A stretch of DNA of 64,000 nt from Spirochaetia bacterium (GTDB lineage: Bacteria; Spirochaetota; Spirochaetia; SP-2023): the NCBI GenBank assembly GCA_965225855.1, contig CBDDCK010000005.1, positions 544,001-608,000 of the forward strand, in the 5' to 3' direction. Every line of letters begins with the position of its first letter. Within the stretch, counting starts at the first letter, position 1. The notes below the pieces were generated by a model. That model saw only the letters and a list, made by a program, of their open reading frames with translations, had not been told where the DNA came from and did not search any database. The position numbers and the translations under genes are program-made. Positions 7,869 through 54,704 of this stretch are shown here, one piece after another.

Positions 7869-9641
7869 ATGTATAAGCTCAAACTACTTTTATTGCCTAT
7901 AGCCTTGCTACTGGCCTTTATGGCCTTTGCCTGCGCCCCACCCGATGACGATGATCGATCTTCTGGGCCGACTATCAATAACGCCATCTACGACTTTGCT
8001 ACGGCTATCTTAACCGTACAAGGCACTAACTTAAGTCCTACAGAAGCGCAAATCCAAACCATCGTGGTAGATGGCCTAGCCTTCAGTTCCTATACTGCAG
8101 ATGACGATGCCACTGGGGTAAATAGTAACGGTCTTGCAAAAGGTAAGTACCGTATTAAAAGCGATGGCACAGCGCTTTGGCTTAGACTTACCGATCAACA
8201 TAAAACTGTTCTTGAGGCCAAGCCCGGTATGGATAGCAATGGTCTAAAAAAAGGGTTGCTTAGCGTTGGTACTGGTGCTTGGGCGGGTTTAAATACAGCC
8301 AAAGACTTGGACGTTAGTAATATACCCGATAAGCAGTCTGAGACCGAATCCGAAGAAGAGTCGCCTAAGCAAACTGAAGAAGCTGAACAAGACGAACAAG
8401 CTGAAGAAGTCGAACAAGCTGAAGATAAGCAGTCGCCTGAACTACCCGAAGCCGAACAAACCGAAGAAGTCGAAGATAAGCAGTCTAAGACCGAAACCGA
8501 AGAGCAGTCGCCTAAGCAACCTAAAGCCGAAGAGCAGTCGCCTAAAGCCGCAATTACCGGTGCAACCTACAATGTTGGCACGGCTCTGCTAACCGTACAA
8601 GGTACTGACTTAGGTAGTGCGACCCAAGCCCAAATCCAAACTATTACGGTAGATGGTGTAGCCTTAAGTTCCTATACTGCAGATGGCACAGCCACTGGGG
8701 CAGATAGTAGCAGTCTTGCAAAAGGTAAGTACCGTATTAAAAGCGATGGCACAGCCATTTGGCTTTACCTTACCGATCAACATAAAACTACTCTGAATGG
8801 CAAGACAGGTATGGATACCAATGGTAGAAAAGTCGGGTTGCTTACTAGCACTGGTGCTTGGGCGGGTTTAGATACAGCCAAAGACTTAACCGTTAGTGGA
8901 CACCCCGAAATCACCAGTGCAAGCTATGATGTAGAAACAGGCGTGTTAGTGATTACAGGTGTCAATTTACCAAAAGCAGTTACAGGCTGGGACTTTAGGA
9001 AATTGAGGTTTGTCGCAGGTAATGGTCGTAAGAGTGAACCATTATTACCGCACCGCGTAACCGGTAAAAACACTAACAGAGGTTCTGCAGCAAGTGCAAC
9101 AAGCTTAACGATTACTTTAATCGGTCATCAAAAATTGACAGCCAATAGGATATTGGTTAAGAATGGTGATAGTGATGTTGATGGTGCATACAACCTGGAA
9201 GCAGCAGCAGGATTTGCAGGTGGTAGGGCAGCAGACACAAGCAATAACCCGATTACCGTTAGTGGGTATGTAGTCAGAATCAATGACGCAAACTACTCTG
9301 CTGATACAGGCTTGTTACGGATTTTCGGTCTCAATTTACCGACAACAATTGCAGAGTGGGACTTTAGCAAATTGACGCTTGTATCCGGTGATGGTAATAA
9401 GAGATACACATTACCCCAGCACGCAATAGGTGAAAACACAGCCACAGGTTCTACAGCAACTTTATACTTCTTATATATTACTTTAAGCGGTAGTGTAAAA
9501 GCCAAAGCCAATAGTATATTGGTTAAGAATGGTAAAAGTGATAATAATGGTGCATACAACCTGGAAGTAGCAGCAGGATTTGTAATTGGTGGTTCAGCAG
9601 ACCCAACCAATGCTATTAAAGTTGCAGGAGTTGTTGAGTAG
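7869..9641 (+). CDS. Modular surface lipoprotein, paralog 1 (signal, module A, E/Q-rich linker, A, B, B)
   Basis: GGAGG RBS then ATG at 7869; signal ending ..AFMAFA-C followed by PPDDDD; repeated ~120-aa beta-rich modules shared with three other genes. Confidence 0.88.
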   Translation: MYKLKLLLLPIALLLAFMAFACAPPDDDDRSSGPTINNAIYDFATAILTVQGTNLSPTEAQIQTIVVDGLAFSSYTADDDATGVNSNGLAKGKYRIKSDGTALWLRLTDQHKTVLEAKPGMDSNGLKKGLLSVGTGAWAGLNTAKDLDVSNIPDKQSETESEEESPKQTEEAEQDEQAEEVEQAEDKQSPELPEAEQTEEVEDKQSKTETEEQSPKQPKAEEQSPKAAITGATYNVGTALLTVQGTDLGSATQAQIQTITVDGVALSSYTADGTATGADSSSLAKGKYRIKSDGTAIWLYLTDQHKTTLNGKTGMDTNGRKVGLLTSTGAWAGLDTAKDLTVSGHPEITSASYDVETGVLVITGVNLPKAVTGWDFRKLRFVAGNGRKSEPLLPHRVTGKNTNRGSAASATSLTITLIGHQKLTANRILVKNGDSDVDGAYNLEAAAGFAGGRAADTSNNPITVSGYVVRINDANYSADTGLLRIFGLNLPTTIAEWDFSKLTLVSGDGNKRYTLPQHAIGENTATGSTATLYFLYITLSGSVKAKANSILVKNGKSDNNGAYNLEVAAGFVIGGSADPTNAIKVAGVVE

Positions 9642-9682
9642 GGTTTTGTTGTTACGGTAAGCAATGCTTACATTTGAAAATT

Positions 9683-9718
9683 GCAGCCTTGGTAAATTTT
9701 TTTATCAAGGCTGCTTTT
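9683..9718 (+). terminator. Probable rho-independent terminator
   Basis: gcagccttg...caaggctgc stem followed by TTTT, downstream of paralog 1. Confidence 0.65.
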
Positions 9719-9840
9719 GCTGTATAGCAAAGCTAGAAAAACTTTATTAAGGCTACAAACTTTTTTTAGTAATAGCTTTAAACAAAATCTTTGAACAAAG
9801 CCCTTACAATAATTATTGCCAGAACGTTGGCATAAAAATT

Positions 9841-10277
9841 AAGAGATTCTCTTAATGCCCAATAATAGAGTCTCTTAATGCCTAATAAGAGATTTTCTTA
9901 ATGCTCAATAAGAGATTTTCTTAATGTATAACAACAGAATTTCTTAATGCCTAACAAGAAAGTTTCTTAATACCCAATAAGAGAATTTCTTAATGCTCAA
10001 TAAGAGAGTTTCTTAATACCTAACAAGAGAATTTCTTAATGCCCAATAAGAGATTTTCTTAATACCCAACAAGAAAGTTTCTTAATGCCCAATAATAGAA
10101 TTTCTTAATGCTCAATAATAGATTTTCTTAATGTATAACAAGAGAATTTCTTAATGCCCAATAAGAGATTTTCTTAATGCCTAATAAGAGAATTTCTTAA
10201 TACCTAACAAGAGAATTTCTTAATACCTAACAAGAGAATTTCTTAATACCTAACAAGAGAATTTCTTAATGCATAAC
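9841..10277. repeat. Tandem array of 19 degenerate 23-bp units (consensus AAGAGAWTTTCTTAATRCCYAAY) with a palindromic core
   Basis: Units read off directly at exact 23-bp spacing; no unique spacers; the period is not a multiple of 3 and every unit carries TAA. Confidence 0.95.
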
Positions 10278-10440
10278 AAGAGATTTTTGTAACAAGATAA
10301 ACTTTGGCCAAGCCTTGCTGGCCTTTTGGGTGGGTACTATGGCTAGTAACCCACTACCAAGCGGGTAGTGGATTGCTAGCTTGGTAGTGGAATAATTTTG
10401 CTTATTCATAGTTATTACGCTTGGATTTTCTAAATACAGA

Positions 10441-12053: not shown

Positions 12054-13352
12054 CTAGATAGTTCCCGGGATTAGCTTGAGAATTTCTTTGATGGAGAGGC
12101 ATTGCTCATCAACTTCAAAAGAACGGCCGTGTTCAAGAATTTTATGGGCTACGTCCCACATGGCAGGGTAGGCAGAACGCAACATGTGATTTGCGTAAAT
12201 ACAGACATTGATACCCTGATCGATTAATTCCCTCTCATAAACCTTGTTGTAACTGGTTGGCACCACGATAAGAGGAACAACTCTAGGCAAGCGGTGGAAA
12301 CGCTTACAAAACTCATAGATTTCAGCGGGGTCTTTATGGCGACTGTGTATCATAATCCCATCAACCCCAGCATTGATATAGGCATCGGCACGAGCAATTG
12401 CATCGGCCATACCAGCATCGAGAATTAGGCTTTCAATGCGGGCGACTATCATAAATTCTGGGTTGACCCTAGCGTGCAGTCCCGCTTGAATCTTGGTGCA
12501 AAAGCCTTCAATGCTATCCTGCTGTTGCGCAACTTCATTGCCCAACAGAGAATTTTTCTTCAGTCCAGTTTTATCTTCGATAATCACAGCAGAAACACCC
12601 ACACGCTCCAGCGTACGAACGGTGAAAGGAAAATGTTCCAACTTGCCACCCGTATCGCCATCGTAAATCATGGGCTTGGTGGTTACTTCAAAAATATCAT
12701 TGATGGTTACGAGCCTTGAAGTTATATCGACTGCTTCTATATCGGGCTTTCCCCTACTGGTGGAATCTGTGAGGGAGCTAGACCACATACCGTCAAAACA
12801 AACGGTTTTACTGTCTCGTTCCACCGCAGCATTTTCGGCAATTAAGCCCGAGAGGCCGTTATGAGTTTCTAACACGCGCACCATATCTTTAGCGGCTATC
12901 AAACGCTTTAGGCTTTGCAAGCGCATTGTCGGGGTAATGCCAGTACTGGAAATGTTTTTGATAATATCCGAGGAGCTAATATCTTTGGTATAGGGCACCT
13001 CTATTAGCTTACCACCCCATTGGACTAAAGCACTGATAACCCGATTGCGGAAAATATCCATCGGGGCTTTTTGCCAGTCATCACCGTGGATTACATAGTT
13101 TGGCTGTAGCTTGGCTACCATTACCGAATCGTCCCACTCTTCTTGGGGTACAACTTGGGATACACCTTTTAAATTCTCCAGCACTTGCCTGCGTTGTTCA
13201 AAATTGAGATAGGGTAAACGCTTGTAGTCAGCAATGGCTTTATCGGTCAATAAGCCAACCGTTACATCGCCGTACTCACGAGCTTTTTCGATAATGCGAA
13301 TGTGCCCATGATGGATAATATCACCACTCATAGATACATAGACCTTTTTCAT
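12054..13352 (-). CDS. aepX: Phosphoenolpyruvate mutase with an N-terminal cytidylyltransferase domain
   Basis: N-terminal HHGH nucleotidyltransferase motif; PEP mutase signature EDK-X5-NS (EDKTGLKKNS); GMWSSSLTDS..GKPDIE. Confidence 0.93.
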   Translation of the reverse strand: MKKVYVSMSGDIIHHGHIRIIEKAREYGDVTVGLLTDKAIADYKRLPYLNFEQRRQVLENLKGVSQVVPQEEWDDSVMVAKLQPNYVIHGDDWQKAPMDIFRNRVISALVQWGGKLIEVPYTKDISSSDIIKNISSTGITPTMRLQSLKRLIAAKDMVRVLETHNGLSGLIAENAAVERDSKTVCFDGMWSSSLTDSTSRGKPDIEAVDITSRLVTINDIFEVTTKPMIYDGDTGGKLEHFPFTVRTLERVGVSAVIIEDKTGLKKNSLLGNEVAQQQDSIEGFCTKIQAGLHARVNPEFMIVARIESLILDAGMADAIARADAYINAGVDGIMIHSRHKDPAEIYEFCKRFHRLPRVVPLIVVPTSYNKVYERELIDQGINVCIYANHMLRSAYPAMWDVAHKILEHGRSFEVDEQCLSIKEILKLIPGTI

Positions 13353-13510
13353 CAACTACTCCTAGCTATTCTTATTTTGACGTTGCAAAAGTAGGGGCAG
13401 ATTCTACTTATAGACCGAACAATCTGCAAGCACTTTAGATAAAAACCGTTTCATACAAAAATAAAAGCTTAGATTCTCTTTACTAAAAGAGCCGATAGGA
13501 TAAAGCTCTA

Positions 13511-13813: not shown

Positions 13814-14325
13814 GCTGACTATCATTTTAGGATACAGGTAACCCAATAATTCATCCAGTAATTAAATTAGTATTCAATAGGCCCTCACCTGATCATTGAC
13901 TAGCTAAATATGGTTGCCATCTTGGTTTAGTAGAAATATGCCATTCGTCCGCGCTTGTTCTATCATCTCCTCATCGGTGATCAAAGTGCCAAAGCCAAAA
14001 TACAGCTTCTGATCGTTGTACTCAGGATAGCTTTCTCTAAACTGTTTAATTTTCTTTTCAACAAATTCCCCTTGGGTAAACCTTGGGTAAGGCCCAAGCT
14101 CCGCAATTATCTAACCACGGCAGGGGCCTCCTTATATAGTTTGGCAATTGTAGCGATTGGCCATAGTTGGCACTAGCTCCCAAAACTAAGGCCAAACTCA
14201 AGGCCCTAATTCAGAAATATTGTATTTATTTTTCATTTTCCAAGAGAATAAATATTTAGATGAATATTTTATATCTAATCTTGTATGGAACTCACAAAAT
14301 ATAGGTTGATAAATTTTGAGTGTGC

Positions 14326-14370
14326 TTGACAAGACTTTATTTCCCCTTATTATTATTGGTTATCAATATT
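14326..14370 (+). promoter_or_regulatory. Putative sigma70 promoter overlapped by a Fur-box-like site
   Basis: TTGACA at 14326 and TATTAT 16 bp later; attattggttatcaatatt (14352-14370) matches GATAATGATAATCATTATC at 12/19, upstream of an iron ABC operon. Confidence 0.45.
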
Positions 14371-14393
14371 ATTTGATTTTAAGGTTTAAGGTT

Positions 14394-15200
14394 ATGCTGT
14401 CGTGCTGTAATATTTCTTCAGGATATGGGAAAAACTCCCAAGTCTTTTTTGGATTAAATTTAAATTTTGAACCCAATAGATTTACCGTATTATTGGGTGC
14501 AAATGGCTGTGGCAAAAGCACATTATTAAAAACTATTATGGGTTTTTTGCCACTATCACAGGGCAAGATTTTATTAAACGATATTAATGTGCGTTCCATT
14601 AAACCGAAAAAATTGGCTAAGAAAATTTCCTATTTGCCGCAGCATCTCCATTGTCCCGATTATTTAACGGTGGGAGAATTAGTGGAATTGGGGCGTTATG
14701 CCAATTTAAAAGAAAGCGTTTTTGGGGCCATTAACAAACAGGAACGTGATTATTTCATCTATTGTTTAGAACAAGTTGGCTTGCAAGATATGGCAAGTAT
14801 TGCTGTCAATTCACTCTCTGGCGGGCAAAAACAACGAGCATGGATTGCGATGGTGCTAGCACAAGATAGCGATATTATTTTGCTGGACGAACCGGTCAAC
14901 CATTTGGACCCCAATTATCAATATTCAATCCTAAGCCTAGTTCGTAAAATTAGGATCGACAATAACAAAACAGTAATTGTAGTTCTGCATGATTTAAATC
15001 AGGCGTGTGTATTTGCCGATAACGCATGCTTACTAAAACAAGGCCAAGTTATTGCCAATGGTACAGTAACGCAATCTTTAACTGCTGATAATATTAAAAT
15101 CAGTTTTGATTTTGATATTGTTCCTATCGAACATCAAAGCCATAGGTTTTGTTTACCACAGACGCAAAGTTATCAGACCAACGCAACGGACAAAGCATGA
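14394..15200 (+). CDS. Iron-siderophore ABC transporter ATP-binding protein (FepC/FhuC/FecE-like)
   Basis: GANGCGKST, LSGGQKQRAWIAMVLAQ, LLDEP and VLHDLNQA motifs. Confidence 0.92.
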   Translation: MLSCCNISSGYGKNSQVFFGLNLNFEPNRFTVLLGANGCGKSTLLKTIMGFLPLSQGKILLNDINVRSIKPKKLAKKISYLPQHLHCPDYLTVGELVELGRYANLKESVFGAINKQERDYFIYCLEQVGLQDMASIAVNSLSGGQKQRAWIAMVLAQDSDIILLDEPVNHLDPNYQYSILSLVRKIRIDNNKTVIVVLHDLNQACVFADNACLLKQGQVIANGTVTQSLTADNIKISFDFDIVPIEHQSHRFCLPQTQSYQTNATDKA

Positions 15201-16213
15201 CCAGACACAAGAATAGCATATGGCTGTTTTTCGGTTTTTTATTGCTAGTCATAGCACTGATTATCAATATGTCTGTGGGGTCAAAATATATCCCCATATT
15301 TGATGTGCTACGCGTTTTTTATGATTTTAACGAAGACTCTTATTTTGACTATATGGTGCGAGATACCCGTTTCCCCCGCAGCGTGATTGCGATTTTTGTG
15401 GCGGCAAATATGGCTGTTTGTGGTTGTGTTTTACAAGGAGTCTCTAACAATCCATTGGCATCGCCATCGTTATTAGGCATTACATCGGGTGCCGTTTTTG
15501 CTGTGGTATTCTTGGGATTTTATCTAAGTATTCCTTTGGAGTATCATGGTTTTGTTGCCTTTGGTGGCGGCATTATGGGATTTGCCTGTTGCTATATTGT
15601 TGCCAAAATGGCTGGATTAAAAAATGACCCACGAGGAATGGTGTTAATTTTAGCAGGGGCCATTGTATCTTCTTTGTTAGGTACTATTGCCAATGCTTTA
15701 GTGCTTGCCGATCAGGGGTTATGGACATTATTGCGCAACTGGATTGCAGGTGATATCAACCATGTGTATATGGAACGCCTCAATGATCTATGGTTATTTG
15801 GAGTTATCCCCATTTTGATTTTGTTTTATATTTCCCGCCCTTTGACATTAATTATCTTAGGAACAGAAACTGCCCAAGCTACCGGGGTTAATGTGAAATT
15901 TTATATGATGGTGGCTCTGACTTGTGCCATTTTTGCATCGACTGCCGCAACTGCCGTAATTGGCCCAGTTGGATTTTTTGGCTTGGTTGTGCCCCATATG
16001 GTGCGCCCTTTGGTGGGGGTACATTTTCGATATGCTATCCCTATGAATATATTTGTTGGCAGTACAGTTGGGTTGGTGGTGGATAGCATTGCTCGCACTG
16101 CATTTTTACCTTTTATCGTCAATACCAGCGTTATTATGCAAATATTAGGGGGCATTGTATTTGTATTGATGGTGAGAAGGTACTACATCAATAAACAAGT
16201 GTCCAATAGGTAA
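15197..16213 (+). CDS. Iron ABC transporter permease (FecCD family)
   Basis: RFPR, NNPLASPSLLGITSGA and GFFGLVVPH motifs; ATGA overlap with the upstream gene. Confidence 0.92.
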   Translation: MTRHKNSIWLFFGFLLLVIALIINMSVGSKYIPIFDVLRVFYDFNEDSYFDYMVRDTRFPRSVIAIFVAANMAVCGCVLQGVSNNPLASPSLLGITSGAVFAVVFLGFYLSIPLEYHGFVAFGGGIMGFACCYIVAKMAGLKNDPRGMVLILAGAIVSSLLGTIANALVLADQGLWTLLRNWIAGDINHVYMERLNDLWLFGVIPILILFYISRPLTLIILGTETAQATGVNVKFYMMVALTCAIFASTAATAVIGPVGFFGLVVPHMVRPLVGVHFRYAIPMNIFVGSTVGLVVDSIARTAFLPFIVNTSVIMQILGGIVFVLMVRRYYINKQVSNR

Positions 16214-16215
16214 AT

Positions 16216-17277
16216 ATGATGATTCAAAAAACTATAGATGGTCGCCATCGTTTGCATCTGCTATATTTTAACATGGATACCCACAATTTATTCACATTGG
16301 TATGGCTTGCCTTAGGTATTATATTTGCTATGGGCTGGTCTATTCAATCTGGCACAGAAAGCGTCTCATTTATAGAAGTATTGCAATCTTTTGTGGGCTA
16401 CGATTTGGGGGCAGATAAAGAATTTGCCATTTATGATAACCGCATGCCCCGTATTATTATGGCAGGGTTAGTCGGTTGTTGCGTTGCGATGGTAGGGGCA
16501 ATTTTGCAATCGCTAATGCGTAATCCATTGGCAGACCCCGGATTATTGGGATTATCACAAGGTAGCATTCTCACGATTATGGTAACCATGTTTTATTTTC
16601 CCAACTTGCCCCATATTTATTATCCTTGGTTTGCCTTGTTGGGTGGTTTAGCTGTTGGCTTTCTATTGCTATTTTTAGTGGGCAAACACAATCAAGGAGG
16701 TATTGCTATATTGTTGATGGGAATTGCGCTAGAGACCGTATTATCATCTATTTCATCAATTATGATTTTGCATTTTGACGTGACCCGGTCTTATAACATT
16801 GCCCAATGGGCACAGGGCTCACTGTTTTATTCTAGCTGGGATTATGTGCTTGAATTTATGGTTTGGTTTACCCTAGCCTTGGCGGGACTGATATTTTTGT
16901 GTAAACCGCTGCGAGTTTACGACCTTGGCGACCAAATGGCTTTGTCTTTAGGCGAACGCATTACCGTTAGCAAACCAATTTTGCTTATTTTTACTGTTTT
17001 AATTACAGCGGCTAGTGTTTCTGCTGTTGGTCCAATGGCATTTTTGGGGGTGTTATGCCCCCATCTGGTAGATTTTGTTACCAAAGCTAGTGGTCGTTCA
17101 CGGGTATTTCTATCGGGTATGGTAGGAGCATTTGTTTTGATTATTGCCGATTACATCACCCGAACGAATTTAACCTATTTATACATGCCTATCGGTATGA
17201 CTATTATTATGGTAGGAGTGCCATTATTTATTGTTACACTACGTTTGAGGTATTTGCAGATAGCGCGCAGTCAATAA
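16216..17277 (+). CDS. Iron ABC transporter permease (FecCD family)
   Basis: RMPR, RNPLADPGLLG and AFLGVLCPH motifs. Confidence 0.92.
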   Translation: MMIQKTIDGRHRLHLLYFNMDTHNLFTLVWLALGIIFAMGWSIQSGTESVSFIEVLQSFVGYDLGADKEFAIYDNRMPRIIMAGLVGCCVAMVGAILQSLMRNPLADPGLLGLSQGSILTIMVTMFYFPNLPHIYYPWFALLGGLAVGFLLLFLVGKHNQGGIAILLMGIALETVLSSISSIMILHFDVTRSYNIAQWAQGSLFYSSWDYVLEFMVWFTLALAGLIFLCKPLRVYDLGDQMALSLGERITVSKPILLIFTVLITAASVSAVGPMAFLGVLCPHLVDFVTKASGRSRVFLSGMVGAFVLIIADYITRTNLTYLYMPIGMTIIMVGVPLFIVTLRLRYLQIARSQ

Positions 17278-17325
17278 TTTATATTCTTAATATCATAGAG
17301 AAAATAGAGAAAGGAGAAATATTCT

Positions 17326-18336
17326 ATGAAAAATTATATTCTAATTGCGTTAGTTTTAATACTACTGCTAGGTTGTTCTCGTCAGAAGCAAGAGCAAGCT
17401 GAGCCTTCAGCGGCTGCGGCTTCTTCGGCAGAATCTTCGGTGGAGATGAAAACTCTAACCGATGATGCGGGGCGCAACGTCAAAGTCCCCGTAAAACCGA
17501 AGGCCATTGCGGGTGGGCATGATGCGATTGTAACCCTGCCATTGTATGAGCTGGGTTTGCCTGTAATCGCTTCGCTTACGCGTAAAGACCCAGCAACAGG
17601 GGAGACAACTGTTTTTGGCCTCAAAGAGATTTTTGGTGTTACTGCTAAGCAAGCGGGAATTCAAAATGTGGCTGGCTATCAGGATATTGATGTGGAAAAG
17701 GTCCGTGCCTTAGGCGTTGACTTGTATATCGGTACTGAAGGTTCAGAAAAGACCGCCAACAAATTCAAAGGGGTTGCACCTTATTTTATCCAAAACAGTT
17801 ATTCAAAGGTCAGCGGTAATGCCAATCAAAAGATATTGGCAGAGCGTTTTGGCGCAATGGATAAATGGAACGAGCTGAATGACAAGTACCAAAAACGTTT
17901 GACAGAGGTTAAAGCAAAATTGCCCTTTGACCCATCTACGAAAACTTATATTGGGGTTATTATGTTTGACAAGCTAAGTGTTGGCAACAGCATTGGTGGG
18001 GTAAACCAAGCAATGGAAGATTTAGGTTTCCAAAAGGCAGATTGGCTTACTGGAGAGAAAAACTTAGGCTTTATGGTTCCAGTTGCCCCCGAAGAAATAG
18101 AAAAAATTGACCAAGATATTGTATTTATGATGGCAGGGTATTCATTTCCCGACCGTTCGCCAGCAAACACCCGAAAGCTGGTCCGAGCTTATGCTCCGGG
18201 CTGGGAGAAATTCCTAAAGGCAGCCACAGAAAACCGCATTATTTTTGTGGACAGTATGTTTACGGTTACCCCGACTTTTGCATCGAATATGTATATTCTC
18301 GATCAACTAGAACAATATTACAAGAGAGTCTCTTAA
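17326..18336 (+). CDS. Iron-siderophore ABC substrate-binding lipoprotein
   Basis: Lipobox LLG-C; TDDAGRNVKVPVKPKAI and DVEKVRALGVDL motifs; last gene of the FecCD operon. Confidence 0.88.
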   Translation: MKNYILIALVLILLLGCSRQKQEQAEPSAAAASSAESSVEMKTLTDDAGRNVKVPVKPKAIAGGHDAIVTLPLYELGLPVIASLTRKDPATGETTVFGLKEIFGVTAKQAGIQNVAGYQDIDVEKVRALGVDLYIGTEGSEKTANKFKGVAPYFIQNSYSKVSGNANQKILAERFGAMDKWNELNDKYQKRLTEVKAKLPFDPSTKTYIGVIMFDKLSVGNSIGGVNQAMEDLGFQKADWLTGEKNLGFMVPVAPEEIEKIDQDIVFMMAGYSFPDRSPANTRKLVRAYAPGWEKFLKAATENRIIFVDSMFTVTPTFASNMYILDQLEQYYKRVS

Positions 18337-18409
18337 TACCTAATAAGAGAGTCTCTTAATGCCTAATAAGAATTTTTTGCGTCCAGTGAAACTTTTGCCA
18401 AGTCTAGCT
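18322..18409. repeat. Second copy of the 23-bp-unit element (2 units plus conserved tail)
   Basis: aagagagtctcttaatacctaat + aagagagtctcttaatgcctaat, then a 42-bp tail similar to 10278-10319. Confidence 0.85.
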
Positions 18410-18460
18410 AAAACAGTCCAGCACTAGAAACTATCTAAAAAGGTTCGTTTTTACGTTATA

Positions 18461-18523
18461 AATTATGATTTTCATTTCTAAATATGGACTAAATTTTATC
18501 TTTAGGTTACAATTTTCATTATC
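18461..18523. promoter_or_regulatory. Two Fur-box-like sites upstream of the ECF/ABC operon
   Basis: 18461-18479 (12/19) and 18505-18523 (13/19) versus GATAATGATAATCATTATC. The AT-rich context lowers specificity. Confidence 0.4.
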
Positions 18524-18596
18524 TACTAGATTCTAGTGAGTAAATTCAATCACAAAAATAAAAGGATGGATAAAGGATTAATAAAAGGATGGATAA

Positions 18597-19204
18597 ATGA
18601 AAACTAAAGACTTTATTCTATGCGGCATACTAGCGGTAGTTTATTTTGTTATTATGATGCTAGTGAGTATGGTAATCACTCCAATAGTTGGGATTTTTGC
18701 CAACCTTGTGCATTTAGCTATACGCCCCTTATCACAGCAATTATTCCGTTACTGTTGGTTCGGAGAGCTCCTAAATTTGGAGTATTGACTATTTACACCG
18801 TTGTTTGGGTAACCCTTACTGCTTTGATGGGGCCTATCTTGCCTTGGATCATTACGGTGCTAGTTTGTACCCTAATAGCGGACTTAATTGCATTCTTCCA
18901 TAAATACAAGAAAATTTGGGTATTAGGTTTGGCCTTTGGAGTTATGGCATTGGGGCAATCCTTGGGATACATCATCACTATCAGATTCCTTTGGGATTCA
19001 TATAAAGGAATGTTTATCTCCAGAATGGGAGAGGAATGGGTGCAGAATATGACAGAGCTTTTCTACCAAAGTTCTATCCTAGCTCTTTTTGTTATAGTGC
19101 CTATAGTCTCCTCGTTAGTCGGTACGTTCTTGGCCGAGAAAATCTATAGCAAACACTTCCACAAAACAGCGATACAAGATAGCGATACGATACAAGACAG
19201 CTAA
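18597..19204 (+). pseudogene. MptD-like ECF transporter S component, frameshifted near 18713
   Basis: MKTKDFILCGILAVVYF N-terminus in one frame; PKFGVLTI...LAEKIYSKHFHK C-terminus in another. One extra base joins them. Confidence 0.75.
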
Positions 19205-19207
19205 ATC

Positions 19208-19947
19208 ATGATCAAACAAATAGACCCACGTACTTTATTTGTGGTAATTATGGCGGTTGGTATATTTCCTATTTTAACCATTTATTCTATTCGCTAGAAA
19301 AGATCTACCTATGTATTTTCCTAGCTATTTTGCTCGCGTTTTTCTTTGGTTTGGTTAGCGTAGCCTTAAAAGCCTTTGGCATCTTTATTTTAATTGGTTT
19401 AGTCAGAATCTCCATTGACTTTATAGATGCATATGCTGGATTTTACTCCCAAACCTTTGCGCAAATACTGGTGCTTTTTGTGTATCCATTGGATCTTTGT
19501 TTAATGTTAGCGCCTACATTTACCATAGGTTTTATCTTATTCCACAAAGTAGATACTTCTTTGTTGATAGCCTCGCTTAGAAAAATGAAATTGCCGCGTG
19601 GAGTGGTGCTATCTATTAGTGTGGCTTTACGCTATTTACCCACTATAAAAACAGAAATCATTTATATTCGCGAAAGTATGGCCATGCGCGGCTTGGATTT
19701 TGGAATAAAAAACTTTGTCTGTAAGCCGCTAAAGACTTTTGAATATGCCTTAGTGCCTTTGCTATTTCGTTCTCTAAAAATTGCAGAAGAACTTTCTGCT
19801 GCAGCCTTGACTAAGGGTTGGGAGTACCAAGGCAAAAAAAGTTTTTATGTGGATTGTCGTTTTACCAAAACAGACTTATTTACCGTCCTATATATTGTTT
19901 TGGGTTTAATACTAATTGATAGAATGCCACCTCTTTTTATATTTTAG
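19208..19947 (+). pseudogene. ECF transporter T component (EcfT/CbiQ), frameshifted near 19272
   Basis: MIKQIDPRT start stops at ~19297; the downstream frame has ALRYLPT..IRESMAMRG and EELSAAALTKG motifs. Confidence 0.75.
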
Positions 19948-19968
19948 CAGATTATATTTTAACAGAAC

Positions 19969-21441
19969 ATGTTACATTTAGAACGATTAAATTTTCGCTA
20001 TAATGGCATGCAACAACAATGCCTTTGTGATATTTCTTTAGAATTAAATGAAGGCCAATTTATCTTATTATGTGGTTGCAGTGGCTGTGGCAAAACGACT
20101 CTGACACGCTGCATCAATGGTTTAATTCCACGATTTTTTGAGGGCAAATTTAGCGGAAATATCCAGCTAGGCCAGCAAAGTTGCCATACTCTGGATATAC
20201 ACCATATTGCCCAAAAAGTCGCCAGCGTGTTTCAAGACCCACGCAGCCAATTTTTTACTACAGATGTAAGTTCCGAACTAACGTTTGGGCCAGAAAATTA
20301 TGGTATTCCAAGGGAACACATAAAACGCCGTATGGACGAAATTTCTGAACTTTTAGATATAGGGCATTTGCTGGGGCGCAGTTTGTTCTCTCTATCTAGC
20401 GGAGAGAAACAAAAGGTCGCTATTGCCTCTGCCTTAATTATGCAACCTTCCATTGTAATTCTCGATGAACCTTCGGCCAATTTAGACCCAGCGGCAATTC
20501 AAGAATTACAACAAGTGCTTGCTATTTTGAAGCAACAAAACTATACGGTAATTATTTCAGAGCATCGTTTTTTCTTTTTGAATAATTTAGTCGATCGAGT
20601 TTTATATTTTAAAGATGGCAAAATTCAGGAAAAATTTAGCAGAGAAATGTTTTGGGAATTTAGCGATACACAAGCCGAGCAGTATGGGTTGCGTTGCCCA
20701 AATTTTAAGGCATCTTTGCCAAGTGCCCCACCAAATATTGGCAATATTGGCGAAAGTTCTGCCCAAAATCAGTCTCTCAACAATGAGATAACAAAAAAGA
20801 CGGCACCAGCTTTGCAGTTAGAAAATCTATGTTATTCTTACAGTAAGAATGTTGTATTTAAAGGATTTTCTTGTATTTGCAATTTAGGGGAAATCGTTGC
20901 CCTTACTGGTAATAATGGGGTAGGCAAAACTACGTTGTTGCGAATTGTGGCAGGATTGGCTAAGGCAAATGCAAGCACCATAATTAAAATTAAAGGGCAA
21001 CGACAAAAGCCCAAACAACGAAAGTCTAATTGTACTTTTGTGATGCAAGATGCAGATTACCAGCTTTTTACGGAAAGTGTTTTCCAAGAGCTATACTTGG
21101 GCAACGAAAAACAAAAAGGCATTAAAGAAAAGGTCGAGCAAGCTCTCAAATATTTTAGCCTGTGGGAATTGCGCAATCGGCACCCAAGTTCTTTATCTGG
21201 TGGAGAAAAGCAAAGGCTGGTGATAGCTTTATCTATGGTGAATAATACCGACTTAATTTTAATGGACGAACCTACTAGTGGTTTAGACCGTGTCAATATG
21301 GAGCGTGTAGCAGCCTTACTACAAAAGCTAGCCTCCCTAAATAAAACAATTATTGTTGCCACTCATGATTACGAATTTATAGAAAAATGTTGTAACAGAA
21401 CTATATCTCTACCAGTGTTAAATCTGCCTTCCGCTAGTTAA
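19969..21441 (+). CDS. ECF/ABC transporter ATP-binding protein with two NBDs
   Basis: GCSGCGKTT and GNNGVGKTT Walker A; LSSGEKQ and LSGGEKQ signatures; VFQDPRSQFF. Confidence 0.92.
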   Translation: MLHLERLNFRYNGMQQQCLCDISLELNEGQFILLCGCSGCGKTTLTRCINGLIPRFFEGKFSGNIQLGQQSCHTLDIHHIAQKVASVFQDPRSQFFTTDVSSELTFGPENYGIPREHIKRRMDEISELLDIGHLLGRSLFSLSSGEKQKVAIASALIMQPSIVILDEPSANLDPAAIQELQQVLAILKQQNYTVIISEHRFFFLNNLVDRVLYFKDGKIQEKFSREMFWEFSDTQAEQYGLRCPNFKASLPSAPPNIGNIGESSAQNQSLNNEITKKTAPALQLENLCYSYSKNVVFKGFSCICNLGEIVALTGNNGVGKTTLLRIVAGLAKANASTIIKIKGQRQKPKQRKSNCTFVMQDADYQLFTESVFQELYLGNEKQKGIKEKVEQALKYFSLWELRNRHPSSLSGGEKQRLVIALSMVNNTDLILMDEPTSGLDRVNMERVAALLQKLASLNKTIIVATHDYEFIEKCCNRTISLPVLNLPSAS

Positions 21442-21508
21442 AAACTGTAAATATGTATTTCTATTCAAACATATAAGACTTTGTCAAATAAATCTGAGGA
21501 ATGAAGAT

Positions 21509-22288
21509 ATGGGTTTGAGCGATTTAAAACGGCTACTGCAGAATAAAAGCAAAATTGTGTTACAGAGCAAACAAAATCCTTTGGAAGATTATTGGATTTT
21601 TGATTTTTCGATAGAAAAAAATATACCGCCCAATCATAAAAAGATAACACAAGATATAACTTGGCTGCCAGGCGATTATTGCTTAATTAGTTTTGCCGAC
21701 AAACGAGTTACTAAAGGAATGAAGCATCGCTATATGAGTATTGTTTCTACACAGCAGCAGGGCTTTATACGCTTGGCGATGCGTATTGGTAGCCAGTCTA
21801 GTGCCTTTAAAAGTTGCATGGCAAATCTTGTAAAAGGTGAAACTATGGTTATGCGTGGTCCAACTGGCAGCTTCCATATTTGCGACTACCAAAACCCGAT
21901 TGTTATGCTAGCCGGAGGTATTGGTATAACGCCTATGCTGGCTATGATACGCCATCTAACAGAGGAAATCGAACAACCTGTTGTACATTCCAAAGTGCAT
22001 TTATTATATACAACAAAAGGGCAGCCTCTCTTTCGTGAAAATTTAGAAGCTTTAGCTGCGGACAATCCCAGTATTCAGCTTAGTTTTTTACAAGGAAGAA
22101 ATGCTATTCATTCTGCTTTAGCGGATTTACTGCAACAATTTTCTACTACCGCCAACTACTATATTGCTGGGCCTAAAGGTTTTTGCACAGACATTAAGCG
22201 AAAGCTCCGCCACAGCAAAATTCCCAATAAAAGAATATTTATCGATCGATTTTATGGTTGCCAGCCATTGTTTTTGAACAAAGGCTAG
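21509..22288 (+). CDS. FAD/NAD(P)H-dependent oxidoreductase (FNR-like, possible ferric-siderophore reductase)
   Basis: RYMSIVS, GPTGSF, AGGIGITPMLAM and YIAGPKGF motifs. Confidence 0.85.
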   Translation: MGLSDLKRLLQNKSKIVLQSKQNPLEDYWIFDFSIEKNIPPNHKKITQDITWLPGDYCLISFADKRVTKGMKHRYMSIVSTQQQGFIRLAMRIGSQSSAFKSCMANLVKGETMVMRGPTGSFHICDYQNPIVMLAGGIGITPMLAMIRHLTEEIEQPVVHSKVHLLYTTKGQPLFRENLEALAADNPSIQLSFLQGRNAIHSALADLLQQFSTTANYYIAGPKGFCTDIKRKLRHSKIPNKRIFIDRFYGCQPLFLNKG

Positions 22289-22319
22289 CGACAAGAGTTA
22301 CGGCGCAAGGACTAAGAAA

Positions 22320-27652: not shown

Positions 27653-27681
27653 TTGACAAATTTTGCCCCCATTCATAAATT
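27653..27681 (+). promoter_or_regulatory. Putative sigma70 promoter of lipoprotein paralog 2
   Basis: TTGACA, 17-bp spacer containing C5, TAAATT. Confidence 0.6.
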
Positions 27682-39381: not shown

Positions 39382-39546
39382 ATTTTATCCTTCCTTTTAT
39401 CAATGATAATGAGAGACCGTAAAGGGCCATCAAGCTATATTATCGGCAGTATAATTGTTTTAATGATATTTAGTCTAGTTCGTCTAGCTGAAATTACAAA
39501 AATATTTGCTGCCAATTTTGGCAATCGTTGCCAAGCCCCCACCCCA

Positions 39547-39955
39547 AACCAACAAACCCGATCGACACTGTATGGCCAAAGTTGTTTGCGCAAAGCGCTT
39601 TCGGTATATACCCAGAAGAGCCCCAGCTAAATACGGGAAGAGCCCCAGTTAAATAAAGAGAAGCCCATATAGCCCAAGCTAAAGTACCCTAACACACAAA
39701 AACTTACAAAAAGTTTATATGGGCCTTGACTCTCCTCCCCCCTAACACAATAGGGCTCTATGCACTAGCCCGTATGGCTTGGCCAATCTTTATCCCTTGT
39801 TGGAGGTATTGCTGTATAAGCTCAAACTACTTTTATTGCCAGTAGCCTGGCTACTGGCCTTTATGGCCTTGGCCTGCACCCCACCCGATGACGATGCGCC
39901 GTCTTCTGGGCCGTATGGTCCGTCTGGTCCGACTATTAATAAGGCCATCTACAAT
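39547..39955 (+). pseudogene. Decapitated lipoprotein paralog: promoter, signal peptide and start of module A; ATG lost
   Basis: ggaggtattgctgtataagctc versus ggaggtattgcttatgtataagctc in paralog 1. Homology stops at aaggccatctacaat; the region duplicates ~40120-40503. Confidence 0.85.
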
Positions 39956-40115
39956 ATATTATAGCAAGTTGGAGCAAGGTATTGATCCAAGGCGGAACGC
40001 TATATTATAGCAAGTTGGAGCAAGGTATTGATCCAAGGCGGAACGCTATATTATAGCAAGTTGGAGCAAGGCATTGATCCAAGGCGGAAAGTTATATTGT
40101 AGCAAGTTGGAGTAA
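39956..40115. repeat. 46-bp tandem repeat, ~3.5 copies
   Basis: atattatagcaagttggagcaaggtattgatccaaggcggaacgct starts at 39956, 40002 and 40048; partial copy at 40094. Confidence 0.93.
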
Positions 40116-40365
40116 AAAGCAACAAACCCGATCAACACTGTATTGTCAAAATTCTTTGCGTGAAGAGCCGCAACTATATAGTGATAAGAGCCCCAGCTAA
40201 ATAAAGAGAAGCCCATATAGCCCAAGCTAAAGTACCCCTAACACAAAAAAAGCTCACAAAAAGCTTGTATAGGCCTTGACGCAACACCCCCCCTAGCAAA
40301 ATAGGGATTTACAGACTAGCCCGTATGGGTTGGCTAATCTTTATCCATTGTTGGAGGTATTGCTT

Positions 40366-42435: not shown

Positions 42436-42494
42436 TTTGACTGCGCTTGCCCAATAGCTTTTAGAGCATAGGCTAAGTGAAAGCTAGCGGGCAG

Positions 42495-42538
42495 GCCAAC
42501 CAAGTAAATGCTGTAAGCAATGCTTGGTTGGCTTTTTT
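42495..42538 (+). terminator. Rho-independent terminator
   Basis: gccaaccaag...cttggttggc stem followed by T6. Confidence 0.75.
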
Positions 42539-42588
42539 GTTGGGTCGTTGTTAGGTAAAGGCTTGGCAACCCTAGCAAATAGGCTAAC

Positions 42589-43203
42589 TTATAAAAAATT
42601 TGGTTTTAGTAAAGAGCGTAACTTAGCACAGGCTAAGCTGCGATGAGACAATGTTTGCTTTTGTTTGGCCGATAATTCAGCTACAGTTTTGCCTGCCAAT
42701 TCAAGGTCAGGATAGAATGATTCAGCCAACTCAAATATAGGATCATAGCCGAAGGCATTTTCCTGCAAGCTCCGTGGTTGCATGGCAATACGGCCTTGTG
42801 CTATGGATTGAGCTGCATAGCATTCATTCACCGCTATAGGGCTTAGCAACACTAGACAACAGACGAAGCGCGCGCTGCGCATTTCCATATTTGGAAAGCT
42901 AGCCAGCTCTTGTAGCAATAGCGCATTGCGTTCTGATGCAAGCTTTAGCCCCCCGTAACGAGCACTAAAAATCCCGGGACGATTTTGTAAAGCAGCCACT
43001 TCTAAGCCAGAATCGTCTGCCAAAATCCAATTGCTAGGGTGTTCTTTTTGTACGGTTTGGGCTTTGAGCATGGCATTACCCAAATAGGTATTGGCATACT
43101 CTTCACAGTAAAATGCCGGTGCCGTGTGTAATGACCAATTTGATAGTAGCTCGTTAAATTCTTGGCATTTATGCTGATTTTGGCTAGCCAATATCACTTC
43201 CAT
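42589..43203 (-). CDS. rdgB: Non-canonical purine NTP pyrophosphatase (RdgB/HAM1)
   Basis: ASQNQHK, LADDSGLEV, PGIFSARY, FGYDPIF and SHR motifs. Confidence 0.93.
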   Translation of the reverse strand: MEVILASQNQHKCQEFNELLSNWSLHTAPAFYCEEYANTYLGNAMLKAQTVQKEHPSNWILADDSGLEVAALQNRPGIFSARYGGLKLASERNALLLQELASFPNMEMRSARFVCCLVLLSPIAVNECYAAQSIAQGRIAMQPRSLQENAFGYDPIFELAESFYPDLELAGKTVAELSAKQKQTLSHRSLACAKLRSLLKPNFL

Positions 43204-43498: not shown

Positions 43499-43871
43499 TC
43501 TGATTGTTAGGGCATTTCCGCTAGTTTGGACTTACACCCATTCTTGATTCTAATTGTTAGCTATTAAAAGTTGATAATACAAGATAAATAGCTGAATATT
43601 GCTTGATATGAGAACAAGGAAATAGGTCGTCCTAGATGGTTGTTCTTATAACCAGCGTATAATATAGGGCAAGCGTAATAGGTTATAGCTACTTACAGTA
43701 ATAGCTGAAAAGCATTTGATGGTCTTGTATATTTACCTCTTCCTCTAATCTTGTCTCGACTCTTGAAAAAGAGAAAATGATTTTTTCTTTTTTAGAACAC
43801 AATATCTTGACATACTTTTAGTTTTCACTAATATGTTTTCCTAATAAATTCTATATGTTATAATTTTATTT

Positions 43872-43945
43872 GGAGGTGTGGTGAAGCTGGTTATCACGTC
43901 GCCCTGTCAAGGCGAAGGCCGCGGGTTCGAGCCCCGTCACTTCCG
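43872..43945 (+). tRNA. tRNA-Asp(GTC)
   Basis: GGAGGTG acceptor, TCGCC-CTGTCAA-GGCGA anticodon arm, GGTTCGAG T-loop. Confidence 0.95.
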
Positions 43946-43953
43946 TTTAAATA

Positions 43954-43980
43954 GAAGGCCGGTATTATCCGGTCTTTTTT
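43954..43980 (+). terminator. Rho-independent terminator after tRNA-Asp
   Basis: gaaggccgg-tattat-ccggtc followed by a T-run. Confidence 0.7.
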
Positions 43981-43994
43981 ATTGAACATTTTTG

Positions 43995-44023
43995 TTGACA
44001 GCTCTAAAATTTTTCGGTATTTT
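43995..44023 (+). promoter_or_regulatory. Putative sigma70 promoter of the tRNA cluster
   Basis: TTGACA, 17 bp, TATTTT. Confidence 0.55.
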
Positions 44024-44044
44024 GCGTTATCTTTAAAAATACAT

Positions 44045-44118
44045 GGTGAATGTAGTTCAGTTGGTAGAATGCCAGATTGTGGTTCTGGTTGTCGCGGGTT
44101 CGAGTCCCGTCATTCACC
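44045..44118 (+). tRNA. tRNA-His(GTG)
   Basis: 8-bp acceptor with G-1; CCAGA-TTGTGGT-TCTGG anticodon arm. Confidence 0.95.
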
Positions 44119-44126
44119 CGTGATAT

Positions 44127-44200
44127 GCGTCCATAGCTCAGCTGGATAGAGTGCCGGACTTCGAATCCGTAGGTCGCAGGTTCGAGTCCTGCTGGGCGCG
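44127..44200 (+). tRNA. tRNA-Arg(TCG)
   Basis: CGGA-CTTCGAA-TCCG anticodon arm; GCAGGTTCGAGTCCTGC T-arm. Confidence 0.94.
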
Positions 44201-44209
44201 TAAAATTGA

Positions 44210-44282
44210 GGGCCGTTAGCTCAGCTGGTAGAGCAGCAGACTCTTAATCTGCGGGTCAAAGGTTCGATCCCTTTACGGCTCA
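44210..44282 (+). tRNA. tRNA-Lys(CTT)
   Basis: GCAGA-CTCTTAA-TCTGC anticodon arm. Confidence 0.95.
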
Positions 44283-44292
44283 TTATACCCAC

Positions 44293-44373
44293 GCGAGAGT
44301 GGTGGAATTGGTAGACACGTCAGATTTAGGATCTGGTGCCTTTGGTGTAAGGGTTCGAGTCCCTTCTCTCGTA
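44293..44373 (+). tRNA. tRNA-Leu(TAG)
   Basis: TCAGA-TTTAGGA-TCTGG anticodon arm and a long variable arm. Confidence 0.94.
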
Positions 44374-44456
44374 ATTTTAAAAGCTCATATAGAGTTTAGC
44401 AGGTAGCAATCCAAGTCAGTTGCCCCATAAAATAAATAAAAGTAAACAAGGATTGT

Positions 44457-50923: not shown

Positions 50924-50942
50924 TGGTTACCTTAGCTCTAGC

Positions 50943-53008: not shown

Positions 53009-53114
53009 TCAATAGCTTTGGCGCTTTGGCTATATTGGGGCTATATTGGGCTTCCCTTTATTTACCAAGGCTGCAATAGGCCAACCAAGCATTGCTTACC
53101 GCAACAACCAAACC

Positions 53115-54704
53115 CTACTTAACTACTCTAATAGGATTGGTTGTGTCTTCTTTACTACCAGGTACAAATCCTGCTGCTGCTTCAAGGTTATATGGACCAT
53201 TAGCATCACGAACACCAGCCTTAACCAGTATCTTCTCGGCTTTGGCTTTTACAGTACCGCTTAAAATAATAGATAATTCTCCGTCGTCTATATTTTCTTC
53301 ATAAGAACCTGTGGCTGTGTTTTCACCTATTGAGTGCTTAGGTAATTGGTATCTCTTACTACCATCACCGGATACAAGCGTCAATTTGCTAAAGTCCCAC
53401 TCTTCAACTAAGTCCGGGAAACCGCTACCCTCAATATATAACTCGCCTGTATTAGCATAGTATTCTGCTCTGGTGATGCTGGCTGTATACCCAATAACGG
53501 TAATAGGATTGGTTGTGTCTTCAGCGCTACCACCTGCAAAGCCTGCTGCTGCTTCCAGGTTGTATGCACCATTAGCATCACTATCACCATCGTTAACCAG
53601 TATCTTATCGGCTTCCGCTTTTACACTACCCCTTAAAGTAATCTTTAAGCTTGTTGCACTTGCTGCAGAACCTGAGGCTATGTTGCTACCTAAAGTTGAG
53701 TGCCGGGGTAATGGGTATCTTTTACTACCATCACCGGATACAAGCGTCAATTTGCTAAAGTCCCAGCCTGTAACTGCTTTTGGTAAATTAGTACCTGTAA
53801 TCTTTAAGAAGCCTACACCAGCGAAGCCTGTAACAGCATTGTAGGTTGCACTGGTAATTGCGGGTGGGTTTCCACTAACGGCCAAGTCTTTGGCTGTATT
53901 TAAACCCGCCCAAGCACCAGTGCCAACGCTAAGCAACCCTTTTTTTAGACTATCGCTATCCATACCGGGCTTGCCATTCAGAGTAGCTTTATCGTCATCG
54001 GTAAGTTTCAGCCAAAGCGCTGTGCCATCTCTTTTAATACGGTATTTACCTTTTGCAAGACCACGACTATTTAGTCCAGTGGCTGTGGCATCTGCCATAT
54101 AGGAACTTAAGGCTAAGCCATCTACCACGATGGTTTGGATTTGTGCTTGGGTCGCACTACCTAAGTTAGTACCTTGTACGGTTAACAGAGCCGTGCCAAC
54201 ATCGTAGGTTGCACGGGTAATTGCGGAGTTACCACTAACAGTTAAGTCTTTGGCTGTATTTAAACCCGCCCAAGTACCAGAGCTAGTAAGCAACCCGACT
54301 TTTCTACCATCCTTATTCATACCGGGCTTGGCCTGAAGAGCAGCTTTATGTCGATCGGTAAGTCTAAGCCAAAGCGCTGTGCCATCGCTTTTAATACGGT
54401 ACTTACCTTGTTCAATACCGCTACTATCTGGCCCAGTCGGTTTGGCATCTGCAGTATAGGAATTTAAGGCTACGCCATTTCTTTGGCTTCCTACCACGAT
54501 GGTTTGGATTTGCGCTTGGGTCGCACTACCTAAGTGAGTACCTTGTACGGTTAACAGAGCCGTGCCAACATCATACATGGCGTTATTGATAGTCAGCTTA
54601 GACGGCCCAGAAGATGGCTTATCGTCATCGGGTGGGTCGCAGGCAAAGGCCATAAAGGCCAGTAGCCAGGCTACAGGCAATAAAAGTAGTTTGTGCTTAT
54701 TCAT
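53115..54704 (-). CDS. Modular surface lipoprotein, paralog 4 (signal, A, A, B, B; no E/Q stalk)
   Basis: GGAGG RBS and ATG at 54704; ..AFMAFA-C-DPPDDD; shared modules. Confidence 0.9.
   Translation of the reverse strand: MNKHKLLLLPVAWLLAFMAFACDPPDDDKPSSGPSKLTINNAMYDVGTALLTVQGTHLGSATQAQIQTIVVGSQRNGVALNSYTADAKPTGPDSSGIEQGKYRIKSDGTALWLRLTDRHKAALQAKPGMNKDGRKVGLLTSSGTWAGLNTAKDLTVSGNSAITRATYDVGTALLTVQGTNLGSATQAQIQTIVVDGLALSSYMADATATGLNSRGLAKGKYRIKRDGTALWLKLTDDDKATLNGKPGMDSDSLKKGLLSVGTGAWAGLNTAKDLAVSGNPPAITSATYNAVTGFAGVGFLKITGTNLPKAVTGWDFSKLTLVSGDGSKRYPLPRHSTLGSNIASGSAASATSLKITLRGSVKAEADKILVNDGDSDANGAYNLEAAAGFAGGSAEDTTNPITVIGYTASITRAEYYANTGELYIEGSGFPDLVEEWDFSKLTLVSGDGSKRYQLPKHSIGENTATGSYEENIDDGELSIILSGTVKAKAEKILVKAGVRDANGPYNLEAAAGFVPGSKEDTTNPIRVVK

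Follow-up and report, generated by a model that had tools for sequence, protein, structure and literature searches.

The vlp genes of Mycoplasma hyorhinis encode lipoproteins made from separate transcripts; insertions and deletions in a promoter homopolymer switch each gene ON or OFF, and the repeat region varies in size (PMC10502178). In Mycoplasma gallisepticum, up to 70 full-length vlhA genes carry promoters, few of which are at the active repeat length (PMC4534519, PMC6258824). For tp0126 and the tpr poly-G promoters of Treponema pallidum, and for porA of Neisseria, a G or C run between the -35 and -10 elements sets the promoter spacing, with an optimum of 17 nt (PMC7864442). The vmp and vls lipoproteins of Borrelia are diversified by gene conversion and possess conserved flanking sequence (PMC4534519), and a further source gives general switching rates only (PMC11868660). 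In this study, we analyzed a family of modular lipoprotein genes found in a 64,000-nt stretch of a Spirochaetia bacterium genome (GCA_965225855.1, contig CBDDCK010000005.1, positions 544,001 to 608,000 of the forward strand), referred to as the window. The source genome is designated G000, and C3, C4, and C5 are contigs of it.

The family is a real, unclassified, and very large library of variable lipoprotein genes. Almost all members carry a poly-C run in the promoter spacer, a feature that the original prediction did not mention and that argues for in-place ON/OFF switching rather than an expression site of the Borrelia type. In-place control by poly-C slippage, acting together with gene conversion, is the mechanism best supported by the sequences, and we regard it as moderately probable. 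The literature searched, mostly without subscription papers and without supplements, held no account of the family.

A large library of modular lipoprotein genes

A tblastn search of G000 (94% complete, 0.68% contamination) returned 114 loci, and hidden Markov models (HMMs) of the modules returned 117 frames. Family counts given below refer to the 109 genes that possess both a signal peptide and a start; eight fragments or divergent frames lacking them were excluded. Counted across the genome, the family thus goes far beyond the four window genes from which it was originally predicted. It spans 219,909 of 2,712,625 bp (8.1%). Full-length genes account for 106 of the 109, with conserved ribosome binding site (RBS) and signal, and the lipobox Cys is residue 22 in 106. 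The genes are scattered singly, 58 on the plus and 51 on the minus strand, with a median spacing of 16.9 kb on C5. Each unit is bordered by repeat flanks (medians of about 590 nt upstream and 270 nt downstream) that include an inverted repeat. At least seven further close members, absent from G000, were present on ENA contigs.

As predicted, module number differs between genes, and this holds family-wide. The commonest layouts are AABB (35 genes), AABBB (20), ABBB (15), AAABB (14), and AAAABB (9). The accompanying claim of different module orders did not hold: in 102 of 109 genes the A modules are followed by the B modules, and interleaving, together with a third module, C, occurs in only two genes (paralog-2 type). 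After the first A comes a linker rich in E, Q, and K (median, 72 aa). Lipoproteins that are related to the family but have their modules in other orders (B-A, C-C-B-B-B) were found on ENA contigs, which indicates that true order shuffling is older than the expansion in G000. Fragment P0125 matches paralog 4 at 86% identity across 181 aa (next best, 76%) and passes from A directly into B; provided that the locus is the same, this suggests that module number differs between strains.

The four window genes reported as intact are all open at the coordinates listed here. The fifth copy, described as decapitated, has indeed lost its ATG, but its body is missing too, with 49 open codons followed by a stop.

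7780 to 7805, plus strand: paralog 1 promoter; -35 TTGACG, C6 run at 7791-7796, CAAAAT at the -10 position, spacer of 14 nt
7869 to 9641, plus strand: paralog 1, 590 aa; signal peptide, A (residues 35-150), E/Q/K/P-rich linker, A (228-345), B (346-467), B (470-587)
9642 to 10410 (ends approximate), plus strand: repeat flank downstream of paralog 1; hairpin formed by an inverted repeat (z -6.1), tandem units of about 21 nt
27653 to 27681, plus strand: paralog 2 promoter; TTGACA, 17 nt, TAAATT; canonical spacing, different leader
27748 to 30801, plus strand: paralog 2, 1017 aa; modules C-C-A-B-B-A-B-A, a divergent type with two members in G000
39726 to 39964, plus strand: remnant of the fifth copy; promoter with C6 and a 14-nt spacer, signal region, 49 codons without ATG
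40276 to 40302, plus strand: paralog 3 promoter; TTGACG, C7 run at 40287-40293, CAAAAT, spacer of 15 nt
40366 to 42435, plus strand: paralog 3, 689 aa; signal peptide, A (residues 39-159), EQA-repeat linker (approximately 40843-41322), A (320-440), B (442-567), B (570-689)
53115 to 54704, minus strand: paralog 4, 529 aa; signal peptide, A, A, B, B, linker absent
54759 to 54787, minus strand: paralog 4 promoter; TTGACT, C6, family -10 position at spacer 14, GATATT at spacer 17

The linker of paralog 3 (40843-41322) is a long, near-perfect EQA repeat of 9-nt units and is likely to be variable in length. Paralog 4 alone has an Asp after the lipobox Cys (54639-54641), which is shared by homologues outside the family. 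In Escherichia coli, an Asp at this position is an inner-membrane retention signal, and paralog 4 may therefore be sorted differently. On either side of paralog 2 lies a copy of a 200-aa coiled-coil open reading frame (ORF) with a weak YraN-type match (26735-27337 and 31123-31704; 92.5% alike). Another copy directly follows the second paralog-2-type gene (G000:C5:357941), and more occur elsewhere.

Modules A and B are predicted to be Ig-like domains. AlphaFold modeled paralog 4 as four tandem beta-sandwich domains (predicted local distance difference test score [pLDDT], 81; predicted template modeling [TM] score, 0.51), and module B alone reached a pLDDT of 93.7. The two modules are distantly alike (hhalign, 83.6%). 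Foldseek returned generic tandem Ig-type matches only, with TM scores of 0.3 to 0.43. The widest structural search placed SbsC first (Z 8.3, root mean square deviation 2.7, 96 residues aligned), with Z near the level of common folds; the S-layer proteins SbsC, Sap, and EA1 scored Z 8.3, 6.2, and 5.3 for a fold that is itself common. Searches of PDB sequences gave no match at E below 0.04. A likeness of module B to the repeats of giant adhesins, noted in the original prediction, was borne out by 33 to 42% identity to repeats of giant proteobacterial surface proteins of the DUF4347/DUF4214 type. Module A profiles matched at full length only in the family and a few related lipoproteins. Atlas clusters for SWM_repeat (PF13753) stood at 0.91 and 0.93 (ranks 25 and 19) with 161 to 162 shared features and low recognition scores, and the four proteins had no SWM_repeat match in Pfam at E 0.01.

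The ratio of nonsynonymous to synonymous polymorphism (pN/pS) was 0.87 to 0.88 for A modules, 1.28 for the first B, 1.47 for middle B modules, and 1.67 for the last B (bootstrap, 1.34 to 2.12). In the last B, highly variable positions (entropy of about 3 bits) alternate with hydrophobic core positions that are invariant; the pattern runs along strands one and two, one later strand, and the strand at the C terminus. The alternation, rather than coordinates, points to a variable outward face of the sheet, on which the diversity of the last B appears to be concentrated. Two points weaken this reading: pN/pS is a rough measure under recombination, and on the variable face, which was picked after the entropies had been seen, pN was 0.61 and pS was raised as well (0.41). 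We infer that the proteins are surface exposed and serve as adhesins or a coat.

Promoter spacing and the poly-C run

Both the promoter geometry and the variation in run length were observed directly. In 107 of 109 genes, TTGAC(G/T) is followed by five bases, the C-run, three bases, and CAAAAT or CACAAT, and the leader is shared; the remaining two have promoters of their own. The run is C7 in 84 of these 107 genes, C6 in 20, and C5, C8, and C9 in one each. Across all 109 genes, the spacer measures 15 nt in 84, 14 nt in 19, 13 nt and 16 nt in one each, and 17 nt in four. The C8 copy thereby reaches a spacer of 16 nt and the C9 copy one of 17 nt.

A hexamer of the form nAnnnT lies 16 to 18 nt from the -35 element in only seven genes: the C8 gene, the C9 gene, a gene with eight A modules, both paralog-2-type genes, paralog 4, and one relative of paralog 4. 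Three copies arrive at 17 nt through other sequence changes, the eight-A gene by a 3-base insertion. In 1,379 upstream regions outside the family, TAnnnT peaks at spacers of 16 and 17 nt (76 and 74 occurrences), compared with 35 to 39 at spacers of 12 to 15 nt. Four non-expanded genes that share the leader have TATAAT, TATAAT, TACAGT, or CATAAT at the homologous site, 16 to 17 nt from the -35 element, and in three of them the C-rich spacer is interrupted. Our placement of the -10 element is based on the genome-wide peak, the homologous boxes in these relatives, and the insertion in the eight-A gene. In keeping with spacers of 14 to 15 nt, the family promoters were absent from the results of a scan of 39500-42600 for consensus promoters.

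Run length varies inside 12 of 22 otherwise identical promoter haplotypes, and in one pair of copies the run is C8 in one and C6 in the other, although the 565 nt upstream and the 223 nt downstream are the same in both. The C-run therefore changes on its own. Only three C or G runs of at least 8 exist in the genome, and two of them are family promoters. As controls for assembly error, 209 C/G runs of 6 to 7 were located in intact long ORFs and one seemed frameshifted, and A/T runs in fixed context were invariant in 202 of 203 cases. Assembly error looks too low to explain the run variation, although repeats may polish worse than unique genes.

From this geometry, spacers of 13 to 15 nt would be silent. 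Paralogs 1 and 3 would accordingly be OFF and paralog 2 ON, with the paralog 3 promoter predicted to stand one slip short of a 16-nt spacer; paralog 4 is possibly ON through GATATT at spacer 17. For the 84 C7 copies, one added base would make the spacer 16 nt and two would make it 17 nt, spacings that are both used in G000. Each gene would be switched on where it sits when its C-run lengthens by slippage. Longer runs would slip back more readily, so that the ON set would stay small, and few variants would be displayed per cell at a time, making the coat changeable. Copies fixed at 17 nt (both paralog-2-type genes, the eight-A gene, and perhaps paralog 4 and one relative) would be constitutive.

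It should be noted that several observations weigh against this interpretation. The family -10 element agrees with the consensus at only four of six positions, and a second -10-like box, without a -35 element, lies further downstream. One of the four relatives with 16- to 17-nt spacing has no ATG, and in a remnant with the shared leader the spacer is 13 nt. Phase-variable tracts are usually longer than C7, and with both MutS and MutL intact, switching to ON may be infrequent. An upstream C-run differs in one near-identical pair, and C-runs may thus be labile generally in this genome. Contigs compared over the repeat are too fragmented to confirm the C9 run or to link flanks in the second strain. 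Sequencing runs X4-X7 contain a strain about 99% alike.

Some of the same features could be read differently, with most copies expressed together at a low or regulated level via an activator or a downstream box, yielding a mixed coat or adhesin set for which run length is incidental. The predominance of full-length genes with conserved RBS and signal (106 of 109) agrees with such co-expression. Phased A-tracts, about 10 to 11 nt apart upstream of the -35 element, could boost a poor promoter, and vlhA genes without 12 GAA repeats are also expressed according to PMC6258824. However, the expanded family characteristically combines a short spacer with an unbroken run, whereas the relatives stand at 16 to 17 nt; three copies gained 17 nt through other changes; and intact silent copies can be kept by conversion alone. 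We consider co-expression unlikely.

The leader hairpin folds weakly (z -1.2 and -1.8), which gives little reason to propose a riboswitch-like role. Other lipoproteins share the leader or module B and carry different payloads (G000:C5:206266-209289, C5:1104040-1106635, and C4:210671-211942); the two on C5 have 16-nt promoters.

Recombination among copies and chromosome order

That recombination acts across the family is, in our judgment, almost certain. The original prediction of gene conversion among dispersed copies is strongly supported by linkage decay, discordant half-module trees, and long identical tracts. Among 97 distinct first-A modules, r2 fell from 0.40 at 3 to 5 nt to 0.03 at 21 to 40 nt, and none of 500 permutations was as extreme. 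Later-A and first-B modules behaved alike (0 of 500 each). Trees built from the two halves of modules had 6 of 94 splits in common, compared with 52 to 64 in six clonal simulations on the same tree, and the fraction of far sites failing the four-gamete test was 0.86 against 0.35 to 0.46. Instead of congruent module trees and an absence of conversion tracts, we thus found discordant half trees and long tracts. On the other side, linkage decay in the last B was not significant (54 of 500 permutations), and pooled module classes gave mixed permutation results.

Distant genes share identical tracts of 1,944, 894, 825, 781, 756, and 659 nt. Tracts of at least 100 nt occur in 89 of 109 genes and tracts of at least 300 nt in 21, with no pair of identical coding sequences (CDSs) among the 109. 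For tracts of at least 100 nt, 191 of 196 pair the same region class and the other five pair B with B, which indicates homologous conversion family-wide rather than free shuffling. The predicted module shuffling was therefore correct as to exchange but overstated, since exchange occurs in register and module order is nearly fixed. Module number probably changes by unequal exchange.

Four mosaic sequence blocks had been quoted as signs of this exchange. All were found in the window genes, the paralog 4 A2 block reading SLKKG, not GLKKG. They belong to the frequent alleles in a pool that holds about 250 modules of each type, nearly all of them different (234 distinct sequences among 250 A modules and 244 among 251 B modules); for example, 42 of the 103 first-B modules are of the RF type, and 65 of the 103 last-B modules are of the TL type. 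The blocks therefore do not demonstrate exchange between these particular genes, whose longest identical tracts with any other gene are 77 to 110 nt.

The long, recent conversion tracts, together with conserved flanks and an inverted repeat that resemble the upstream and downstream homology sequences of Borrelia (PMC4534519), could also fit an archive that feeds an expression site, the arrangement known from Borrelia vmp/vls and Neisseria pilE. Either the C9 gene or another locus would then be the fixed site, with short-spacer copies as donors via the conserved flanks. The donors, however, have whole promoters, and apart from run length, two C7 promoters match that of the C9 gene exactly. The C9 gene is not among the 40 longest tracts (all at least 156 nt), no CDS is duplicated, and the long tracts join many pairs without a single hub. 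An expression site is improbable on this evidence, more so than co-expression.

Mosaics and run lengths might in principle be artefacts of a mixed-strain or mis-polished assembly. Some contigs break off inside or close to family genes, one partner of the longest tract sits close to the end of its contig, and C4 terminates in a 6.9-kb segment that duplicates C5 at 99.3%. This explanation is scarcely credible given that contamination is 0.68% and nearly all modules are distinct, that contig depth summed across one gene exceeds that of single-copy sequence by a factor of hundreds, that mosaic members occur on other ENA contigs too, and that homopolymer error is low. The 6.9-kb duplicate itself, between the right end of C4 and C5:1285627-1292521, is a haplotype bubble or a rearrangement; the start of C3 matches nearby, and a seven-A gene is close.

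The expansion was not found in three congeners. HMMs of A, B, and C had no match in 2.37 of 2.41 Mb of one of them (G003), and the poly-C promoter and leader patterns were at background level in congeners. Beyond them, no relative was detected for paralog 4 in 40 other genomes, for the module B profile in 400 other sampled genomes of the phylum, or for the A and B profiles in five order-level genomes, where one match at E 0.06 fell in a 77-codon frame. Wider scans of genome collections confirmed no locus. FlaA matches, which mark the organism as a spirochaete, numbered three in G000 and none in 14 control genomes, and the best named match of L25 was Candidatus Haliotispira prima (72%), which is mollusc associated.

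Between consecutive orthologues shared by G000 and G003, only 1 of 95 intervals with a family gene was syntenic, compared with 161 of 471 operon-boundary-like intervals without one, and synteny was 0 of 65 for family-gene intervals whose remaining gap was below 3 kb. GC skew is two-phase in G003, and weak and broken on C5 of G000. Strand-skew correlations of 0.40 and 0.19 within blocks, against -0.04 and -0.05 across family genes, have large errors and are confounded by distance. Crossover between copies likely caused the loss of synteny, in a single comparison from which the order of events is not derivable. The position of the copies at synteny breaks and the lack of the expansion in congeners would also suit a largely neutral or selfish expansion, in which repeat-flanked units spread by ectopic recombination and homogenize without adaptive switching. 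Nearly all frames are intact, however, the structural core is invariant, pN/pS exceeds 1 in B only, and no IS200-type transposase or reverse transcriptase was found in G000, and we regard such an expansion as very improbable. Mobilization by a diversity-generating retroelement or by IS200/RAYT elements was likewise not supported; RVT_1 was not found in G000, at its completeness of 94%.

G000 has two very long clustered regularly interspaced short palindromic repeat (CRISPR) arrays. One (C5:1074336-1094687, 323 repeats) adjoins two large ORFs of 1573 and 1208 codons, and another (C5:662641-675947, 202 repeats) adjoins one of 1188 codons; judged by their N-termini, the former look like Cas12a and the latter like Cas9. 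Thirteen spacers (11 distinct) match the organism's own chromosome and may reflect uptake of kin DNA. Two of them (C5:1091722 and C5:671128) match module A of the family at 118 and 93 places with at least 92% identity. As a mechanism, CRISPR targeting was rejected, since the 2 of 11 distinct self-matching spacers that hit the family correspond to about its share of the genome.

Slippage in place and gene conversion could together operate as follows. Gene conversion and unequal crossover would renew sequence and module number, while crossovers between copies would likely rearrange the chromosome as well. The A modules and the acidic linker may act as a stalk, with the hypervariable outward face of the terminal B being the part recognized by a host receptor, phage, or ligand. 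More tentatively, and as a possibility that we rate below even, some 100 intact and scattered genes would together form a system of antigenic variation in which 84 copies stand one C short of ON, conversion is nearly free, and the copies double as chromosome breakpoints. In a host without antibodies, phage or invertebrate receptors would be the driving force. If the switching model is right, promoter slippage in place and gene conversion, usually met apart, are joined at 8% of a genome in an unclassified protein family, and a cause is offered for the scrambled gene order of G000. The lineage is not known to face antibodies, and it would then allow a test of whether phage or innate receptors can drive antigenic variation. 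The natural variants of one promoter, about 100 in number, would allow a direct test of how a short C-run can keep the library silent yet reachable, and as many variants of one domain with a hypervariable face would give a map of what is recognized.

Elsewhere in the window, a cytidylyltransferase-PEP mutase fusion (12054-13355) points to phosphonate synthesis. It is followed by a cluster (14316-25890) with an iron-siderophore ABC system, an MptD-type ECF system, and a paired ABC exporter. A tRNA-like gene cluster (43870-44375) has canonical 16- to 17-nt promoters, as judged by eye. A subtilase gene (59442-60304) lies in two overlapping frames, both matching Peptidase_S8, and is probably frameshifted.

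Comparison with known systems

Homology to the Borrelia vls/vmp or Treponema tpr genes was not claimed in the original prediction, which spoke of analogy, and no Pfam or NCBIfam match to these or to Vlp was obtained for the four window proteins. The family is like vmp/vls in that spirochaete lipoproteins are combined with gene conversion and conserved flanks. The flanks here also contain a hairpin and may guide conversion. Unlike vmp/vls, the family has no promoterless archive, the full promoter and leader being shared by 107 of 109 genes, and no duplicated expression-site copy; the expression of the C9 gene is itself a prediction. The modeled tandem beta-sandwich domains also set it apart from the Tpr/Msp outer-membrane proteins. 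Compared with DUF4347/DUF4214 repeats, SWM_repeat, and SbsC, the repeats here are carried on short lipoproteins in a gene library. Leptospira LigA and LigB are likewise spirochaete surface adhesins with tandem Ig-like repeats. The four proteins had no match to a Big family in Pfam. Lig genes are few in Leptospira.

Membership in each of the three remaining systems fails by sequence or layout. As in vlp, surface lipoprotein genes each have their own promoter holding a homopolymer of variable length. The vlp genes form a small cluster, whereas the approximately 109 genes described here are dispersed, with poly-C in place of poly-A, folded Ig-like modules, and gene conversion family-wide. The vlhA genes have GAA repeats upstream of a promoter that is not of the sigma-70 type and lie in cassettes of 3 to 5 in tandem; in the present family, the C-run is inside a sigma-70-type spacer and the genes stand singly. 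As in tp0126 and porA, a G/C run lies between the -35 and -10 elements, with spacers of 13 to 17 nt. Those systems concern single or few outer-membrane proteins, whereas here the switch is multiplied about 107-fold on lipoprotein genes. By analogy, therefore, the system appears to work most like M. hyorhinis vlp and M. gallisepticum vlhA, with the spacer rule of tp0126 and porA.

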